From the IMG/VR virus record IMGVR_UViG_2718217795_000001, positions 1-30,259 of that record: a DNA stretch of 30,259 bases. The stretch is one strand, 5' to 3'. Positions within the stretch are counted from its first letter, which is position 1. Every line of letters starts with the position of its first letter. This document shows, piece by piece, positions 16,547-25,372 of this stretch. This DNA is from a virus (Duplodnaviria > Heunggongvirae > Uroviricota > Caudoviricetes). A program made the translations under genes and the position numbers. The notes beneath the pieces are model-generated. The model ran no database searches. It worked only from the letters and a program-made list of their open reading frames with translations, and was not told the origin of the DNA.

Positions 16547-18316
16547 ATGACCATCTCCACCGATACAACCTTGTTGCATGACCCGCGACGGCAGGCATCG
16601 CTGCTTTACTGGCAGGGCTTTTCCGTGCCACAGATTGCCGAAATGCTGCAGGTCAAGCGCCCGACCGTGCAGAGCTGGAAGCAGCGCGACGGCTGGGACG
16701 GTATCGCACCGATTTCCCGCGTCGAAAGCAGCCTTGAGGCGCGCCTGATTCAGCTCATCGCCAAGCCGCAAAAGTCAGGCGGCGACTTCAAAGAGATTGA
16801 CCTGCTCGGGCGGCAGATTGAGCGACTGGCGCGCGTTAACCGCTACAGCCAGACCGGCAACGAGGTCGACCTTAACCCCAATGTCGCCAACCGTAACAAG
16901 GGCGAGCGTAAGAAGCCGAAAAAGAACTTTTTCAGCGACGAGGCTATCGGGAAACTGGAGGAATTATTTTTCGACCAGTCTTTCGAATACCAGTTGCAGT
17001 GGTACCGCGCAGGACTGGCGCACCGTATTCGCGACATTCTCAAATCCCGCCAGATTGGCGCGACGTTCTATTTTTCCCGCGAGGCACTGCTGCGCGCACT
17101 CAAGACCGGCCATAACCAGATTTTTCTTTCAGCCAGTAAAACGCAGGCTTACGTGTTCCGTGAATACATCATCCAGTTTGCGCGACTGGTCGACGTTGAC
17201 CTGACCGGCGACCCGATTGTCATCGGCAACAACGGCGCAAAGCTGATTTTTCTCGGTACCAATTCCAACACGGCGCAGAGCCATAATGGCGACCTGTATG
17301 TCGACGAAATTTTCTGGATCCCGAACTTTCAGCGGCTGCGCAAAGTCGCCTCGGGCATGGCCTCGCAAAAACACCTGCGCTCAACCTATTTTTCAACGCC
17401 CTCCACGCTGGCGCATGGCGCTTACCCCTTCTGGTCTGGCGAACTGTTCAACAAGGGGCGCAGCAGTATCACCGAGCGTATCGATATCGATATCAGCCAT
17501 ACCGCGCTCGCCGGTGGTCAGCTCTGCGACGATGGACAGTGGCGGCAGATTGTCACCATTGAGGACGCGCTTGCCGGTGGCTGCACCCTGTTTGACCTTG
17601 ACCAGCTCAAACGCGAAAACAGCGCAGAAGACTTTAAAAACCTGTTTATGTGCGAATTTGTCGACGACAAAGCGTCGGTGTTCCCGTTCGAGGAGCTGCA
17701 ACGCTGCATGGTCGACGTGATGGAAGAATGGGAGGATTTTGCCCCGTTCGCCGATTATCCATTCGGATCCCGCCCGGTCTGGATTGGCTACGACCCGTCA
17801 CACACTGGCGACAGCGCCGGGTGCGTCGTACTCGCGCCGCCGGTGGTCTCGGGTGGCAAGTTCCGCATGCTGGAGCGCCATCAGTGGAAAGGCATGGACT
17901 TTGCCGCACAGGCAGAGGGGATCCGAAAGCTGACCGAGAAATATAACGTTGAATACATCGGCATTGACGCGACCGGCCTCGGCCTCGGCGTTTATCAGTT
18001 GGTGCGCTCATTCTTCCCGGCAGCGCGCGGTATCCGTTACACGCCTGAAATGAAAACCGCAATGGTGCTCAAGGCAAAAGACACCATTCGCCGCGGCTGT
18101 CTGGAATACGACGCCGGGGCAACCGACGTCACTCAGTCGTTTATGTCCATCCGCAAAACCATGACCAGCAGCGGGCGCAGCGCCACCTATGAGGCCAGCC
18201 GCACCGAGGAAGCCAGTCACGCCGATATCGCATGGGCGACCATGCACGCCCTGTTAAACGAACCGCTTTCTGCCGGTAGCGGCATGCAGCCTAAATCTAT
18301 TCTGGAGTTCAACTAA
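16547..18316 (+). CDS. P: Terminase ATPase (large) subunit P, 589 aa
   Basis: P2 gpP-like sequence and size; ATG with GGCGAGG RBS; TAATG overlap with Q. Confidence 0.92.
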   Translation: MTISTDTTLLHDPRRQASLLYWQGFSVPQIAEMLQVKRPTVQSWKQRDGWDGIAPISRVESSLEARLIQLIAKPQKSGGDFKEIDLLGRQIERLARVNRYSQTGNEVDLNPNVANRNKGERKKPKKNFFSDEAIGKLEELFFDQSFEYQLQWYRAGLAHRIRDILKSRQIGATFYFSREALLRALKTGHNQIFLSASKTQAYVFREYIIQFARLVDVDLTGDPIVIGNNGAKLIFLGTNSNTAQSHNGDLYVDEIFWIPNFQRLRKVASGMASQKHLRSTYFSTPSTLAHGAYPFWSGELFNKGRSSITERIDIDISHTALAGGQLCDDGQWRQIVTIEDALAGGCTLFDLDQLKRENSAEDFKNLFMCEFVDDKASVFPFEELQRCMVDVMEEWEDFAPFADYPFGSRPVWIGYDPSHTGDSAGCVVLAPPVVSGGKFRMLERHQWKGMDFAAQAEGIRKLTEKYNVEYIGIDATGLGLGVYQLVRSFFPAARGIRYTPEMKTAMVLKAKDTIRRGCLEYDAGATDVTQSFMSIRKTMTSSGRSATYEASRTEEASHADIAWATMHALLNEPLSAGSGMQPKSILEFN

Positions 18317-19362
18317 TGGGTAAGCAAAAATCCCGCAAAGCCGCTGCGCAGAAGGCCAGCAAGCCACAACACCTGACCGCCAGCGCACCGCCAAAAACAA
18401 CAGCTTTCACCTTCGGCGAGCCGGTGCCGGTACTCGATAAGCGCGACATTCTGGATTACGTCGAGTGCATCAGTAACGGCAAGTGGTACGAGCCGCCGGT
18501 CAGCTTCTCCGGGCTGGCAAAGAGCCTGCGCTCTGCTGTACATCACAGCTCACCGATTTACGTTAAGCGCAACGTGCTCGCGAGCACCTACATTCCGCAC
18601 CCGTTGCTGTCCCGTCAGGATTTCAGCCGCTTTGCGCTCGACTATCTGGTATTCGGCAATGCCTTTCTTGAGCAGCGCCACAGCGTCACCGGCCAGTTAA
18701 TCAAGCTGCTGGCCTCACCGGCCAAATACACCCGGCGCGGGGTCGACGATTCTATATTCTGGTTTGTGGAAAACTTCACTCTACCGCATGAGTTCGCGCC
18801 TGATACGGTGTTTCACCTGCTGGAGCCCGATATTAATCAGGAGATTTACGGCCTGCCCGAATATCTCAGCGCGCTTAATTCTGCCTGGCTGAATGAATCC
18901 GCGACGCTGTTCCGCCGCAAGTATTACCAGAACGGCGCGCACGCGGGTTACATCATGTATGTGACCGACCCGGCGCAGAGCGCGACCGACGTCGAATCGC
19001 TGCGCGAGGCGATGCGAAACTCGAAAGGGCTCGGCAACTTTAAGAACCTGTTTTTCTACGCTCCCGGCGGAAAACCGGACGGCATCAAAATCGTGCCACT
19101 GAGTGAGGTCGCCACAAAGGATGACTTTTTCAACATCAAGAAAGCCAGCGCCGCCGACCTGATGGACGCGCACCGCGTACCGTTCCAGCTCATGGGCGGC
19201 AAGCCCGAGAATATCGGTTCGCTCGGTGACGTTGAGAAGGTGGCAAAAGTATTTGTGCGTAACGAGCTGTCACCCCTGCAGGACAGGTTCAGGGAGGTAA
19301 ACGACTGGCTCGGCATGGAGGTCATCAGGTTCAAAGAGTACACCCTCGACAACCCGGAATAA
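18316..19362 (+). CDS. Q: Portal protein Q, 348 aa
   Basis: P2 gpQ-like sequence and size; followed by terminator and cos. Confidence 0.92.
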   Translation: MGKQKSRKAAAQKASKPQHLTASAPPKTTAFTFGEPVPVLDKRDILDYVECISNGKWYEPPVSFSGLAKSLRSAVHHSSPIYVKRNVLASTYIPHPLLSRQDFSRFALDYLVFGNAFLEQRHSVTGQLIKLLASPAKYTRRGVDDSIFWFVENFTLPHEFAPDTVFHLLEPDINQEIYGLPEYLSALNSAWLNESATLFRRKYYQNGAHAGYIMYVTDPAQSATDVESLREAMRNSKGLGNFKNLFFYAPGGKPDGIKIVPLSEVATKDDFFNIKKASAADLMDAHRVPFQLMGGKPENIGSLGDVEKVAKVFVRNELSPLQDRFREVNDWLGMEVIRFKEYTLDNPE

Positions 19363-19395: not shown

Positions 19396-19538
19396 ATACC
19401 CCGCCACCATCACGCCTCAGATGCGCCACACGCGCACCACCACACCCGACCACCAACGAACCGACAGCGACCACGACCGCGCCATCACGACGCGCTCAGA
19501 CGATAATTTTTATTATTACGCACCACCGCTGGCGCGCA

Positions 19539-19557
19539 ATGCTTTCCCCGCCACGCC
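19539..19557. other. cos site, 19-nt cohesive end of 186 type
   Basis: Plus strand ATGCTTTCCCCGCCACGCC is the reverse complement of GGCGTGGCGGGGAAAGCAT, the cohesive-end sequence I recall for phage 186 (P2 differs at 2 positions); lies adjacent to Q as expected. Confidence 0.7.
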
Positions 19558-19651
19558 TGCCCGCTTAACGGGTCGCTTTTAATGCAGGTGCATCAGGAGC
19601 CCCGAGCCGCGCCAGCGCTGGCGCTGGCTCACAAATTCTGGAATCAAAAAC

Positions 19652-19681
19652 GCATGCAATTTAATGCAAGATAATGCATTC
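19652..19681 (+). repeat. Three tandem ~10-bp repeats with core ATGCA(A/T)
   Basis: cgcATGCAAt / ttaATGCAAg / ataATGCATt, helically phased, ~110 bp upstream of the cassette start codon. Confidence 0.5.
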
Positions 19682-19730
19682 AAATTGAGTTTATGATACT
19701 GATCGGTCAGTCATGCCTTCATTCTTAGGT

Positions 19731-19760
19731 TTGATATGGCACAGGCTACCTTGTAACAAT
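19731..19760 (+). promoter_or_regulatory. Candidate sigma70 promoter of the AT-rich cassette
   Basis: TTGATA (19731-19736), ~18-nt spacer, TG-extended AACAAT (19752-19760); AAGGTG RBS 6 nt before the ATG at 19789. Confidence 0.35.
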
Positions 19761-19788
19761 TAGGGATTTTTCAAAAAGGTGACTACCC

Positions 19789-20847
19789 ATGGCAGGTGAA
19801 ACTCAAAATATTTCAGCAATGGCGGAAAAGATATCTTCCGATTTATTTAAGTGGTTCAAGTGGGAGCTTGTTGGGGTAACCAATGAAAACTTTCAGTGTT
19901 TGAAGTCTACGCAACATAAAACAAAGTCTGGAACACACCCGACTGATGTTGTTTTTTCCTATAAGGATCCATACTTAAATCGGACGATTTTTTTAAATAC
20001 AGATTTAAAAAGTTATGTAAAAGGGTCGATAACAGCAACCTCAATGCGAAACGCATTAGTCTCATTGGCTAACTCTATTGATTGCGCAGAAGGTAGCAAG
20101 GAATGGAAGGATAGATACTCTTATCAAAGTGGCTCTTCTGAGGTTAGAGGAATGCTCTTTGTATATAATCATGATGGTGAGTTTGACAGATCGTTCTATG
20201 ATGTGTTTTATCAGTCTTATAATGCAGAAACTGATAAAACAAAACGGGGTATTAACCTTGATAATATTCCTCTAAAACAAGGTCAGAAGATTCATATTAT
20301 TGAGCCGAGAACTATAAATTATTTGCAATCAATAATTACGGACTTGTCTCAACTGAGTCACAATCGAGAATTTCCTTTAGGTAAAAATTACCAGTTCTTT
20401 TACCCAGACCTATCACTTCATAAAGTTAGCGGGTCACCTGAAGAACACCCGGCAACAGTAGAGTTGTTAACGGGGCCTTTTTTGATAATTAAACACAACG
20501 ATGTTAAACATTGTGATGAAGAAACTTTAGAGTGGAAAACAACCTATAAGCATGGTTATGTTATTTATTACAATGGCGAGGGTAATAATGAATTAGAGTT
20601 TGTTTATATTCTTGATACGTTATCAAAATACCAACTCTTGGATGGAAATGAAAAGATAAGAATTAGAATTGTACATCCAAGCATTTATAAAGATGTTCGC
20701 AGTATTTTTATGCGTGCTAAGGAAACATACTGTAGAGAATGGGGTTTCGATGAACATAAAAAAACCATCATTGATGCCATTGATTTTCACCAAGTTGAAT
20801 TTACAAAACCTCACTTCAGTTCTGTTGAGATTGGTTGGGAGCGATAA
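19789..20847 (+). CDS. Cassette gene 1: hypothetical protein, 352 aa, possible PD-(D/E)xK nuclease fold in N-terminus
   Basis: ATG with RBS; ~35% GC; N-terminal pattern E26 ... PTD52-VVF ... IFLNTD72-L-K74 fits a restriction-endonuclease-like core; no Walker A/B. Confidence 0.6.
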   Translation: MAGETQNISAMAEKISSDLFKWFKWELVGVTNENFQCLKSTQHKTKSGTHPTDVVFSYKDPYLNRTIFLNTDLKSYVKGSITATSMRNALVSLANSIDCAEGSKEWKDRYSYQSGSSEVRGMLFVYNHDGEFDRSFYDVFYQSYNAETDKTKRGINLDNIPLKQGQKIHIIEPRTINYLQSIITDLSQLSHNREFPLGKNYQFFYPDLSLHKVSGSPEEHPATVELLTGPFLIIKHNDVKHCDEETLEWKTTYKHGYVIYYNGEGNNELEFVYILDTLSKYQLLDGNEKIRIRIVHPSIYKDVRSIFMRAKETYCREWGFDEHKKTIIDAIDFHQVEFTKPHFSSVEIGWER

Positions 20848-20849
20848 GT

Positions 20850-21974
20850 ATGAAAATCGGTTTGTATAGCGTTAATGACAAAGCTATGTTTGATGCTCTC
20901 AATCAAACAAAGGTGACTCATGAAGACATGAAAAGCCTTTTTTTCAAAAGAGGCACTATTATTTCTAAGGATACAAAACGGAAGACTTTAGCTTTGGATT
21001 TTTCGAAGAACTTCCACGGCTATTATGACTTTGAATATTTATCAGAAATTCTTGGATCTGTAGGGAGAAGAGAGAAAGTATCAATTAATATTGTCAACAG
21101 TGCAATTAGTTTAAGTGATATGGAAGTCACAATAAAATCTATATGTGAAGAATTACAAAAAGAGGGGGATGTAACAAATATCAATTACACCGAGAATGGA
21201 TTTGAGGTGTCAGTAAAATATGTCAAGCTGGATTTTAAAATGAGCGAGTTTCGGCAATCCTCATCTCGCGAGGCTAAAATACAAGTAGAGTTGAATGATG
21301 AGGGAGAGTATATTACGCGCTTCCCTCAGAATGCCAAGGCACATGAGTTTAATGAACTTTTGATTAAAAAAATAAAAGAAACTAATAATGATGAGCCTGT
21401 AAGTCTTGAAGAGATATCGCTTGAAACGGTCAAAGATTCAAATGAACGTAGTCGTTTCTTTAAAGAACTGATCGTTAGTATGCCAAATTACAAATGTGTC
21501 GATGTGTCAGATGTTTATGTCACCCATCCAGTATTAGAGGTTAAAAAACCATCTGAATCTGAAGATGATGAAGATGACTCGGATGAGGATGATGATGCTG
21601 TAATAGACACTGGGTATCATATTTCAAAGGCATCATTGAAAGGAAGGGGTGTCCTTGAATCACCAGAACTGGAAGAGTTATTGGGTAATGGGTTTTACAT
21701 TACAAAGATAATATGGAGTTCGGTAGTCGAAGGTTTTAAAGACTCCGATAAGTATGAATTCGAAGCCCAGTTTGTGGATCCGGATAAATGTAAGCTGTTT
21801 TCTTATCTCGTTCGTGGATGTTATAAATATAAAAAAGTAAATGTGTTTACTAATCGGCAAAATGTGGATAAGGAAAAAGAAAATGTGCTATTATTATCAA
21901 TAGAAAAAACGGCTCGAGAAATCTCTAATAGAATAATATCTTTAAATACTCTCGAGGTAGTCACTGAAAAATAA
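20850..21974 (+). CDS. Cassette gene 2: hypothetical protein, 374 aa, with poly-acidic linker
   Basis: Track start is a TTG at 20835 overlapping gene 1; ATG at 20850 follows GGGAG RBS and lies 2 nt after gene 1 stop. Run SESEDDEDDSDEDDD at nt 21552-21596. Confidence 0.6.
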   Translation: MKIGLYSVNDKAMFDALNQTKVTHEDMKSLFFKRGTIISKDTKRKTLALDFSKNFHGYYDFEYLSEILGSVGRREKVSINIVNSAISLSDMEVTIKSICEELQKEGDVTNINYTENGFEVSVKYVKLDFKMSEFRQSSSREAKIQVELNDEGEYITRFPQNAKAHEFNELLIKKIKETNNDEPVSLEEISLETVKDSNERSRFFKELIVSMPNYKCVDVSDVYVTHPVLEVKKPSESEDDEDDSDEDDDAVIDTGYHISKASLKGRGVLESPELEELLGNGFYITKIIWSSVVEGFKDSDKYEFEAQFVDPDKCKLFSYLVRGCYKYKKVNVFTNRQNVDKEKENVLLLSIEKTAREISNRIISLNTLEVVTEK

Positions 21975-21985
21975 AAGGAGTTGTT

Positions 21986-22657
21986 ATGAAAACAAAATGG
22001 TTTACTGCCAACTTCCCTGCCGGTCTCGATAGGTTATACCAGGCCATCATAAACACGCCTTTTGACAGTGACAAAGGTTGGGGGTTTAGTATTCTTTCAT
22101 ATGAAGATAAGTATATATCTTCAAAATATATTGAAAGGGTTGAGGTAAGCGAAGTAATCATAGACCCCTATGGTAATGAAACTGAGTTTAATCATTTCAA
22201 ATATGTGCAGTTTAACTTTTGGTTTTTTAAAGCTCAAGGCGGTAACTTCATTTTAATAATTGATTCTCCGCCTAGAAGTATCAAGGGTTTTATCTCCAAT
22301 GTGATTAAGGCAACTGAATCCGATTTTAATGTTTCTTATCTTGTGATTCAAATTGATGAGTTTATAAAATTTATCACGCCTCACTTCGAAAAGGTTCAGG
22401 TGCACAAGGCCAAATTAAAGGATTTGACTTTTAGTAAAAATACATCTGGCATTTTAGAACTTGAGTCTTCAAATGACGCGATAGATGAGATGAGAAATAT
22501 TTTTAAAAATGCAAAATTCACGATTGATAAAGTTAAATTGAGTGTTAAATCTAACACTGGCAATGAAACATTAGAAGTGAATTCCAATGGTTCTCTTAGC
22601 TTCTCAGAGGAGCTTTTTGATAAGATATTCTCTGCAGTTGAGCGTTTCACTTTCTAA
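21986..22657 (+). CDS. Cassette gene 3: hypothetical protein, 223 aa
   Basis: ATG 11 nt after gene 2 stop with AAGGAG RBS; AT-rich; no recognisable motif. Confidence 0.6.
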   Translation: MKTKWFTANFPAGLDRLYQAIINTPFDSDKGWGFSILSYEDKYISSKYIERVEVSEVIIDPYGNETEFNHFKYVQFNFWFFKAQGGNFILIIDSPPRSIKGFISNVIKATESDFNVSYLVIQIDEFIKFITPHFEKVQVHKAKLKDLTFSKNTSGILELESSNDAIDEMRNIFKNAKFTIDKVKLSVKSNTGNETLEVNSNGSLSFSEELFDKIFSAVERFTF

Positions 22658-22666
22658 GATAGAGTT

Positions 22667-22706
22667 GAAAAGCACTCTTAGTAAAATAAGGGTGCTTTTC
22701 ATTTTA
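22667..22706 (+). terminator. Rho-independent terminator after the cassette
   Basis: Stem AAAGCAC(tctta) / (taagg)GTGCTTT with loop, followed by TTTTCATTTT, 10 nt after gene 3 stop; near-palindromic so possibly bidirectional. Confidence 0.6.
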
Positions 22707-22847
22707 ACTTTAAAAGTTTTTCGAAATCCGAAAGTGTTCGCGAGATTTGTTACCTCGTATTCATTTTGATTAGCGAGTTTTTATCAAGGTCAATGCTCTT
22801 ATAGGTATCGAAACCTGAGCCCGCATGTAATACCCGGAGCTTAAATT

Positions 22848-23030
22848 CTATTCGGCTTTATAGAAAATATCCGGGTCATCCTCAGCACTTTCACTGTTCG
22901 CTAAATCAGCAATAAGAGTGAGTGCGAGCTTAAGGTCTGACGGTTTGCAATTTGCAATCAGAGACACCTCTGCAATGAATTGTACACAAGCCCACTTTTG
23001 CTGAGTTCGGCTGAAATGTTCGCCAACCAT
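22848..23030 (-). CDS. Small SOS-regulated ORF, candidate Tum-like antirepressor (possibly truncated), 60 aa
   Basis: ATG with GGGAGGG RBS, about 20 bp downstream of a near-consensus LexA box; occupies the position between gene A and cos where 186 carries tum. No sequence homology asserted. Confidence 0.4.
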   Translation of the reverse strand: MVGEHFSRTQQKWACVQFIAEVSLIANCKPSDLKLALTLIADLANSESAEDDPDIFYKAE

Positions 23031-23143: not shown

Positions 23144-25372
23144 TTAACTATCAATTTTTGTTGCCGCTTCGGCTAAATCCGCAACGCGACGTAGAATCTT
23201 TCTGGCTTGAGACTGTTGTGACGGTGCTGCGGAAAATACCTCTCCTTTAGCTGTTCCACGCAACCATTTACCGTTAAAGCAACTCTTACCACCTGCCATA
23301 AGGTGCAGGGCTTCGCCCCGGCTGATGGTGATGCCGGTAGTGAGACGTATCTCGTCGATAGTTTTCGACAAAGCTGCATTTTGTTCGTCCGTTCCGTGGA
23401 TGAATTTTCGTCGTGTTGACGGTTTTTGCTTCCTCAGTCGGCTCGCCAGCTCTCGTCTTTCTGACCGACTCAGTGATTTTGTTAAATCCAATATCGGTGG
23501 ATCGCTTTCGCTTCCCGTACAGTTATTGACAGAACTCCGAGAGGGCGCAGGAGCGCCCTTAACGTCAACGGCCAAATCAACGGCACGCTTCGGCACAATT
23601 TTCCACTGCGTTAGCCGGGTTAAAATCGGGGTGCCAGCACCGACAGCGGAATCGTACACGCCACGGATGCAGACGGTTTCCTCACCATACTGGTTAAACT
23701 CGGCGCGCGGTTCATACAGCGTGCGCACCTGCAAATCATCGCGACGGACAAACGGGCCACCCTGCGCATTAACGTAACCAGCCCAGTCACCGGCGTCAGC
23801 GGCATCATGGACGGCGGCAAACTCAACGCTCAGACCGTGTGCGGTCTCGGTATCAGCGAGGCGACGCAACTCACGGTAGACCGTCACTGGCGCACCACCG
23901 ATAAACTGAAACTGACGGATGTGCCAGCGTGCCGCCCATGCCGAAACGGCGGGGGCTGTTTCTTTCAGCAGCTCACCGCTTTCGTCATCGGTTTCACCAT
24001 CAAGAGCATAGCCGTCGATATTTTTCGAAATGTATTTAGCTACATAGCCGGTAGCGCTCCCCTTTTCCGGGTCAATGGCCTCGGCATGAAAGCGAGCTTT
24101 TTTGGCTTTATCGCTTCTCAGTTCGTGGTGGTCTTCCTCCCACGCATAATCACGGATGATGAGGCGCACGCGCTCGACGTCTTCCGGCAACATGAACATA
24201 AGCATGTGCCAGTGCGGCGTCCCGTCGTGATGAGGCTCGGCAACACGTATGCCGAAAATGCGGATTTCTTCCCGGTGCAGCTTGGCGCGAATGCGCGCCC
24301 AAAGGCCGGTGAGATAGCTCTGCGTGTCCAACGGGCTGGCACCGTTCCATTTGCTGTTACGGTAGCCTGCTTTGGTGGTGGCGTGATATTTAGACGGTGC
24401 GGTCAGGGTGTAAAACTCACCGACATAACCGAGCTCATTGCAGATGTTTTCAAAACCACGGATACGGGTCATCAGCTCGCAGCGGCGTATCGCAGGGTTA
24501 GCGACCGAACCGTCGTATTTTTCAATCAGGCTGATGCGGTTGCCGTCTTCATCTTCGAGATCCAGCCCCTTGAGAAATTCACGCGTGCGGCGCTTCTGCT
24601 CACGCCAGTCGGTCACGCAGTTTTTACTCGCGTAGGCGTGTCGTTTTTTGCTGACATTTCCGACGGCAATTTGCAGATGTTCGCGCCATGCAGCCGCAAT
24701 GCGACGCAGACGACCACGCCACCACACATCGTTAAACATACGAGCGATAGCCGGGGCGATTTCATCTTCTCCGACATATTTTTTAGTCACCCGCTCCCAA
24801 TGCGGAGGGGTGACATTGAATTGCAGAGAAATAATACCGGCGCGCATGTACCAGGTGTACAGCGTTTTTAGCTCGCTAAATCCGGTGTCATCAATGTCAG
24901 CCAGTTCAGCACGAATGAAATTAGCAATATCAGCGGCCAGCAGGTCAATATCGGCGCGCGACATATCAGGGAGGCGGTTATATCTGGCGACTATGTTGAC
25001 CATGCGTGACGCCAGATATTGCATGAGCTGGGTATCAAAATGACCACCAAAAACAGTGGCCGATAAGTTGCTGTTGATACCCGCGCACTGATATTTTTTT
25101 GCGACCAGTTCAAGACGTGGTAATGCCTTTTTGCAGAAGCTGATTAAAAAGGCATTGGCTCGTTGACTGCCCTGATTTTGCTCCAGCACCGCAGCGGTGC
25201 GATAAACATCAAAGCGCACGCACTCGGGTTGGAGCGAAAGCACTTTTCTCGCATGCAGCAAAGCCGCGAACATACGGTCGCGGCGATACTGTTGGTCATA
25301 GGTAAGATATGGGCTGGCTATTGCTGACCGTGGAGCGTTCCACGGGTAAGCAAAGTTAACGCTTACCCGCAT
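23144..25372 (-). CDS. A: Replication initiation protein A (rolling-circle nickase), 742 aa
   Basis: P2/186 gpA-like sequence and size; last gene of the early lytic operon. Confidence 0.9.
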   Translation of the reverse strand: MRVSVNFAYPWNAPRSAIASPYLTYDQQYRRDRMFAALLHARKVLSLQPECVRFDVYRTAAVLEQNQGSQRANAFLISFCKKALPRLELVAKKYQCAGINSNLSATVFGGHFDTQLMQYLASRMVNIVARYNRLPDMSRADIDLLAADIANFIRAELADIDDTGFSELKTLYTWYMRAGIISLQFNVTPPHWERVTKKYVGEDEIAPAIARMFNDVWWRGRLRRIAAAWREHLQIAVGNVSKKRHAYASKNCVTDWREQKRRTREFLKGLDLEDEDGNRISLIEKYDGSVANPAIRRCELMTRIRGFENICNELGYVGEFYTLTAPSKYHATTKAGYRNSKWNGASPLDTQSYLTGLWARIRAKLHREEIRIFGIRVAEPHHDGTPHWHMLMFMLPEDVERVRLIIRDYAWEEDHHELRSDKAKKARFHAEAIDPEKGSATGYVAKYISKNIDGYALDGETDDESGELLKETAPAVSAWAARWHIRQFQFIGGAPVTVYRELRRLADTETAHGLSVEFAAVHDAADAGDWAGYVNAQGGPFVRRDDLQVRTLYEPRAEFNQYGEETVCIRGVYDSAVGAGTPILTRLTQWKIVPKRAVDLAVDVKGAPAPSRSSVNNCTGSESDPPILDLTKSLSRSERRELASRLRKQKPSTRRKFIHGTDEQNAALSKTIDEIRLTTGITISRGEALHLMAGGKSCFNGKWLRGTAKGEVFSAAPSQQSQARKILRRVADLAEAATKIDS

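Follow-up and report, generated by a model that had tools for sequence, protein, structure and literature searches.

The described defence system closest to the one studied here in its putative nuclease is GAPS4, whose GAPS4a subunit carries an N-terminal, non-canonical PD-(D/E)xK motif (HGxD...SxK). Both GAPS4 genes are required, an Asp-to-Ala mutant of GAPS4a loses defence, and the two proteins form an a2b2 heterotetramer in which a GAPS4b ring is predicted; the system senses DNA breaks, it is triggered by nalidixic acid or by a DNase effector, and it responds with the non-selective degradation of both phage and host DNA (Mahata et al., bioRxiv 10.1101/2023.03.28.534373, 10.1101/2025.09.07.674715). 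A three-gene system, 3HP, has been described from the hotspot of phage P2, defined as the interval from gpA to gpQ, in which P2-like phages harbour anti-phage systems; it protects against phage P1 (possibly in another allele than the one analysed here) and was reported to have "no clear predicted domain" (Rousset et al. 2022, PMC9122126), and survey literature gives it as unclassifiable. Here we analyse a stretch of 30,259 nucleotides (nt) of a Caudoviricetes virus (positions 1 to 30,259 of IMG/VR record IMGVR_UViG_2718217795_000001, hereafter the window) and, within it, a three-gene cassette whose first gene (19789-20847) had been proposed to encode a PD-(D/E)xK nuclease in an initial annotation made without database searches. 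We consider it likely that this cassette is the known 3HP anti-phage system, carried as cargo of low guanine-cytosine (GC) content in the hotspot of a P2/186-like prophage, that its first gene encodes the nuclease subunit Hp1, and that it works, as we predict, in a GAPS4-like manner.

Results

The three co-linear genes of the cassette, tightly packed on the + strand, all match PADLOC models, with E-values of 3.4e-65 for Hp1, 6.1e-36 for Hp2 and 4.9e-08 for Hp3, and these models we take to be those of the 3HP (Rst_3HP) system in the PADLOC and DefenseFinder nomenclature. The three proteins also match three PHROGs of unknown function.

19789..20847, + strand: Hp1, 352 amino acids (aa), predicted effector nuclease; nuclease domain at about 1-135, C-terminal domain at about 170-352
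20850..21974, + strand (open reading frame, ORF, from TTG 20835): Hp2, about 374-379 aa, remote GAPS4b homologue with a moderately supported RdgC/Iml3-like fold; acidic linker at about 232-261
21986..22657, + strand: Hp3, 223 aa, third subunit; PHROG 5850; no recognisable domain

Gene order, gene sizes and the location between portal/cos and gpA all agree with the 3HP of Rousset et al. and PADLOC, with no difference in kind, and the window cassette is an Enterobacter-type allele. A protein 100% identical to Hp1 is annotated from Enterobacter hormaechei, and E. coli prophages carry a cassette of about 76% identity in the same portal-gpA position, the first gene of which is named "PD-(D/E)XK nuclease domain-containing protein" in some RefSeq records. 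What goes beyond the published descriptions of 3HP is the nuclease assignment and the relationship to GAPS4.

The nuclease assignment is carried mainly by conservation. A deep homologue search with Hp1 returned 381 homologues, and a profile search of 1.84 billion representatives yielded full-length matches in 518 clusters (50% identity), of which 255 reached E<=1e-30. Conservation was scored on 140 relatives with 30-48% identity to the window Hp1 (median about 34%), in which the residues conserved at >=93% lie almost all within positions 1-130; in a set of 64 homologues H50, P51, D53, D72, L73, K74 and S75 are invariant. The motif elements are the following.

19798..19800, + strand: E4, conserved acid at the start of helix 1; 129/129 sequences without a gap here have E; counterpart of E3 in GAPS4a 'MGEFSK'
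19936..19947, + strand: H50-P51-T52-D53, 'PD' motif on strand beta2; H50 in 140/140, P51 in 137/140, D53 in 140/140; aligns to THGID of GAPS4a
20002..20010, + strand: D72-L73-K74, '(D/E)xK' motif on strand beta3; D72 in 139/140 (E in the remaining one), K74 in 140/140; inside model strand 65-76
20167..20175, + strand: N127-H128-D129 triad at the end of strand beta4; conserved in 138, 131 and 134 of 140, respectively; GAPS4a has N-N-D at the aligned place

The last of these probably lies in the active-site periphery and has a putative functional role. Because a loose regular expression (P-x-D-hh...(D/E)-x-K) is matched by about 1.5% of shuffled Hp1 sequences, the pattern alone is only mildly unusual and constitutes weak evidence, and the real evidence is the conservation of its residues. 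Besides the catalytic positions, C37 (139/140), H43 (136/140), C99 (140/140) and H128 (131/140) are near-invariant in the nuclease domain, and C37, H43 and C99 are common to Hp1 and GAPS4a; these residues may represent a structural metal (Zn) site or additional active-site histidines.

An AlphaFold2 model of Hp1 built from the homologue alignment (predicted local distance difference test, pLDDT, 87.1; predicted template modelling score 0.86) has a core composed of helix 3-22, strands 33-36, 49-52/54-60 and 65-76, helix 83-102 and strand 117-127, which is the alpha-beta-beta-beta-alpha-beta topology of the PD-(D/E)xK superfamily; local pLDDT is low for residues 1-4, which include E4. The initial annotation had pointed to structure prediction as a check, and the motif residues do lie on nuclease-like strands of the model, where beta2 carries D53 and beta3 carries D72/K74 (DSSP of the model), the arrangement of the canonical fold. 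Furthermore, Hp1 is structurally similar to established PD-(D/E)xK members, and its nearest neighbours include FokI, HindIII, N.BspD6I, BsmI, MspJI and AspBHI. The Pfam family PF26115 (PDDEXK_GAPS4) is precomputed on the 100%-identical protein and on nearly all of the listed homologues. A local Pfam-A scan of Hp1, Hp2 and Hp3 gave noise only, which is uninformative because that copy lacked PF26115 and PF26110, and the Hp1 alignment, used as a profile against PDB sequences, gave no match. Alignment and model together show an intact, invariant PD-(D/E)xK active site in Hp1 (E4, H50-P-x-D53, D72-x-K74) on a predicted restriction-endonuclease-like fold. A metal-dependent phosphodiesterase activity is predicted for it, to which the GAPS4 data lend indirect support.

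The nuclease core put forward in the initial annotation is thus supported by the invariant motif residues, by the topology of the model and by PF26115 on the homologues, and the strings it quoted are all present in Hp1 (WELVGV at 25-30, HPTD at 50-53, VVF at 54-56, IFLNTDLK at 67-74 and SGSSEVRGMLFVYNHDGEFD at 114-133). Its details need some correction: D72 and K74 were numbered correctly, but residue 52 is a threonine and the aspartate of the motif is D53. The acidic residue of WELVGV, which had been placed in a helix, is E26, kept in only 43/140 relatives and located outside helix 1 of the model; we have rejected it as the helix acid in favour of E4.

The relationship to GAPS4 was analysed with GAPS4a and GAPS4b sequences taken from the preprint supplement, which in an NCBIfam check scored 291 bits (GAPS4a-RiKo) and 324 bits, both over the cutoff. 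Aligned by hhalign, Hp1 and GAPS4a gave a probability of 97.3% (E 1.8e-11, 214 columns) with THPTD placed on THGID, and the single-sequence version still gave 92.5%. The Hp2 profile (70 sequences) matched the GAPS4b profile (50 sequences) at 95.0% (E 3.8e-8, 246 columns); significance was reached only with these two profiles, as an Hp2 profile set against a single GAPS4b sequence was negative (0.1%). Six hhalign controls, made of unrelated pairs and reversed sequences, all remained at <=0.5% with E>=0.1. In the NCBIfam scan Hp1 matched GapS4a at E 8.6e-11, which is sub-threshold. These alignments show Hp1 and Hp2 to be, at the level of sequence profiles, remote homologues of GAPS4a and GAPS4b. 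In addition, Hp1 and GAPS4a share PF26115, an N-terminal nuclease domain and a series of landmarks (G-E, W25, C37, H43, T-H-x-x-D, Y58, P61, x-K-S/Y, C99 and G-x-L-F-x-x-N-x-D), and the gene order is nuclease, then partner, in either system.

The two systems also differ in several features. 3HP has three genes in 73/73 complete loci, whereas GAPS4 has two or a fused one, and Hp3 is without counterpart there; the motif of Hp1 is HPxD...DxK, with the canonical Asp, whereas that of GAPS4a is HGxD...SxK, with Ser in that place; and the disordered poly-acidic linker of Hp2 is absent from the aligned region of GAPS4b. As distant Hp1 relatives classify as PADLOC Hp1 and not as GapS4a, and no Hp2 homologue matches GapS4b or PF26110, 3HP is, on the criteria of these family models, a sister lineage of GAPS4 and not a member of it. 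Neither 3HP nor RdgC is named in the GAPS4 preprint, and in the literature searched we have not found stated the link between 3HP and GAPS4, the RdgC-like fold of Hp2, or Hp3 as a fast-evolving subunit without GAPS4 counterpart. Other PD-(D/E)xK proteins or cleavage domains (Shedu SduA, Hachiman HamA, Can2/Card1, Cap4, NucC and the FokI/AF1548-type cleavage domain) show no detectable sequence relationship to Hp1 and have other partners, and the 3HP cassette, unlike other defence systems with PD-(D/E)xK effectors, includes no gene for a helicase, for a CARF/SAVED sensor or for cyclic-nucleotide signalling.

Regarding the partners, the best full-length match of Hp2 is RdgC, and we assign it an RdgC-like fold with moderate confidence. 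No sequence similarity between Hp2 and RdgC was found in the Pfam scan or in the NCBIfam scan of 45 Hp2 homologues. Proteins of the RdgC/RexA fold class, to which the phage-exclusion protein RexA of lambda belongs, bind DNA, in the case of RdgC in the form of a ring dimer (PMC11077077); any likeness of Hp2 to RdgC, lambda RexA and Iml3-Chl4 is one of predicted fold only, and its oligomeric state and DNA binding are predictions. Residues 232-261 or so of Hp2 (window positions about 21525-21620) form a disordered poly-acidic linker (PSESEDDEDDSDEDDDA; pLDDT <50) with 14 D/E in 30 residues, and 70 homologues from many phyla have kept the acidic composition of this linker (median 23 residues, net charge -7.5) but not its sequence. 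The linker may be a DNA-mimic or an autoinhibitory element. The mechanical ORF start of Hp2 (TTG 20835) overlaps the end of Hp1; since homologues begin with 'MKxGLYS', the real start is probably ATG 20850, 2 nt past the Hp1 stop codon.

A third ORF homologous to Hp3 is present in 75 loci. No Pfam match (59 members scanned) and no PDB sequence match was found for it, and its hhalign comparisons with GAPS4b, Hp1 and Hp2 were all null. Hp3 has only three positions conserved at >=90% and is the fastest evolving of the three proteins, yet it is found in every complete locus, a pattern that fits a specificity, trigger-contact or regulatory subunit.

We collected 84 related loci from Gamma- and Betaproteobacteria, Cyanobacteria, Acidobacteriota, Bacteroidota, Desulfobacterota, Campylobacterota, Verrucomicrobiota and others. 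The complete Hp1-Hp2-Hp3 triplet is found in 73 of them, and most of the others are too short or frameshifted. Neighbouring genes touch or overlap, the median gaps being -8 and -4 nt, median identities to the window proteins are 43.5% for Hp1, 34.9% for Hp2 and 21.5% for Hp3, and the pairwise divergences of the three proteins are correlated (r 0.79-0.92). In many bacterial phyla Hp1, Hp2 and Hp3 are passed on as one operon of touching or overlapping genes, and the three are obligately linked. Only 4-5 of 69 long loci have a P2-like context, and therefore the triplet is a mobile module found now and then in P2-like phages.

Some individual loci deserve mention. In Pseudomonas (locus L001, P. 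syringae, genes at 290-2373) the triplet adjoins PLDc_2, DUF4365 and DUF5677 genes and has the look of a defence island, and the triplet of V. cholerae (L003) is followed by a small HNH gene. The Hp2 gene of L009 is split into two ORFs, and three other loci (L058, L071 and L082) contain truncated or split Hp1 or Hp2 genes (Hp2 of 225 or 159 aa; the Hp1 of L082 ends early), which suggests occasional decay of 3HP. Hp1 genes 99% (L005, 1-1762) and 75% (L009, 1-2935) identical to that of the window lie on very short contigs in metagenome-assembled genomes labelled 'Bacillota' or 'Lactobacillales'; most likely these contigs are DNA of enterobacteria or phages that was mis-binned, and not real Gram-positive carriers.

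By its gene content (terminase, portal and gpA), the window is a P2/186-like prophage, in which the features around the cassette are the following.

16547-18316: terminase gene
18316..19362, + strand: P2-type portal gene (gpQ), left border of the hotspot (Pfam Phage_portal); arrangement matched in an annotated E. coli prophage (L004)
19731..19760, + strand: candidate sigma-70-like promoter upstream of the cassette (TTGATA-18-AACAAT with TG; consensus scan only)
22666..22701, + strand: predicted cassette terminator, a strong hairpin of 15 pairs followed by a T-run (terminator scan)
23144..25372, - strand: P2-type replication endonuclease gpA, right border of the hotspot (Pfam Phage_GPA, E 5e-135)

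Because the cassette is flanked by portal and gpA, its location is the portal/cos-gpA hotspot of Rousset et al. The three ORFs occupy a block of 2.9 kb whose GC content is about 35%, against about 57% for the phage around it, with a positive GC skew (region 19500-23000), and this contrast is a clear sign of cargo of recent foreign origin. Promoter-like sites are not enriched in comparison with shuffled sequences, so the candidate promoter is weak. The terminator separates convergent transcripts, the cassette on one side and tumA/gpA on the other. A 60-aa ORF at 22848-23030 (- strand), downstream of gpA, corresponds to tumA of phage PSP3 (about 85% DNA identity), a gene that belongs to the SOS/UV induction module of 186-like phages; PSP3 tumB (DinI-like), orf37 and orf38 are missing here, and the convergent 3HP cassette sits in their place. 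No tRNA genes were found in the window.

Discussion

By analogy with GAPS4, it is likely that Hp2 is a DNA-engaging sensor and scaffold, that Hp1 is a DNA-degrading effector under its licence and that Hp3 is a tuner. Hp2, through an RdgC-like DNA-binding fold, would engage DNA ends or breaks arising in infection and, perhaps together with Hp3, would license Hp1, so that DNA would be degraded and phage replication would stop, a response for which the host cell would probably pay a cost. Hp3 would be a regulatory or specificity subunit that tunes the triggering.

Several observations weigh against this reading. Hp1 scores 41.6 bits against the 270-bit cutoff of GapS4a (NF047933), that is, as a homologue and not as a member; 45 Hp2 homologues include no GapS4b (NF047934) match at E<=10 and none with PF26110, and therefore a mechanism borrowed from GAPS4 has to span a large distance. 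Two proteins suffice for GAPS4, so that the universally kept Hp3 implies that 3HP differs in some essential step, and the reported phenotype of 3HP (P1 only, for an E. coli system that may differ from the window cassette) is narrower than that of GAPS4. As to the structures, the clustering in space of E4, D53, D72 and K74 is inferred from secondary structure and homology, not from coordinates, and the Foldseek comparison of Hp2 with the PDB is marginal (best E 1.7e-3 for CENP-N, followed by Iml3, with low TM-scores), RdgC itself not being among the top 50.

Some of these points, together with others, would agree with a restriction-like 3HP that discriminates its target, in which Hp1 would cut only phage DNA (on account of its structure, its modification or a replication intermediate) and Hp2 and Hp3 would recognise that target, with no break-triggered indiscriminate degradation and no damage to the host. 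Type IIS and Type II restriction enzymes and nickases are among the nearest structural neighbours of Hp1, its D-x-K is canonical, unlike the S-x-K of GAPS4a, the phenotype is narrow, and specificity could be conferred by Hp3, the additional, fast-evolving subunit; we nevertheless regard this explanation as rather unlikely. It is highly improbable that Hp1 targets RNA (tRNA or mRNA) and causes translational arrest: GAPS4, the closest experimentally studied homologue, degrades DNA, RdgC as the best full-length match of Hp2 binds DNA, and the matches to RnlA amount to about 99 residues of a common KA1/TBP-like sub-domain with a root-mean-square deviation of 9.

Two further explanations concern the motif itself. 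It could be a chance match or a degenerate, non-catalytic nuclease fold used as a scaffold, in line with the matches of the loose pattern to shuffled sequences and with the empty local Pfam and PDB sequence searches. However, the catalytic positions are invariant in 140 sequences, whereas inactivated folds lose such positions, the highly conserved residues concentrate in the N-terminal part of the protein, the homologous Asp is essential in GAPS4, and the Pfam result is explained by the absence of PF26115 from the copy used; we find this explanation scarcely credible. The nucleotidyltransferase with a GS-x12-D-G-E pattern, which the initial annotation had offered as a weaker alternative, is effectively refuted: the string exists in Hp1, but G115 and S116 are variable in the 140 relatives, and the model and its structural neighbours are those of a nuclease.

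Returning to the GAPS4-like working that we prefer, one possible, if doubtful, extension of it is that 3HP is an unrecognised three-component branch of a GAPS4 superfamily of "DNA-integrity sentinel" nucleases. Hp2 of RdgC-like fold, assembled alone or perhaps in a hetero-ring with the fast-evolving Hp3, would thread onto DNA ends, and the poly-acidic Hp2 loop would plug the DNA-binding pore as a DNA mimic until its displacement frees the Hp1 DNase. If true, this would mean a broader family of ring-clamp-gated PD-(D/E)xK defence nucleases, present in many bacterial phyla and as cargo of P2-like phages.

It is already known that the protein family is labelled in Pfam (PF26115) and in RefSeq/PGAP and that 3HP is a catalogued defence system, and the value for genome annotation is routine because Pfam and PGAP already label the Hp1 family. 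What is added here is the explicit relationship between 3HP and GAPS4 together with the features that distinguish them, namely the canonical D-x-K, the obligatory Hp3 and the acidic Hp2 loop. In this way 3HP, still listed in surveys without a classifiable domain, gains a predicted canonical PD-(D/E)xK effector, and its tie to GAPS4 gives it a testable mechanism, in which the sensing of breaks or ends would license DNA degradation. A GAPS4-like 3HP is predicted to have as a side effect the sensitisation of cells to quinolones and DNase toxins, and the obligatory Hp3 and the acidic Hp2 loop, both lacking in GAPS4, are where its triggering may differ.
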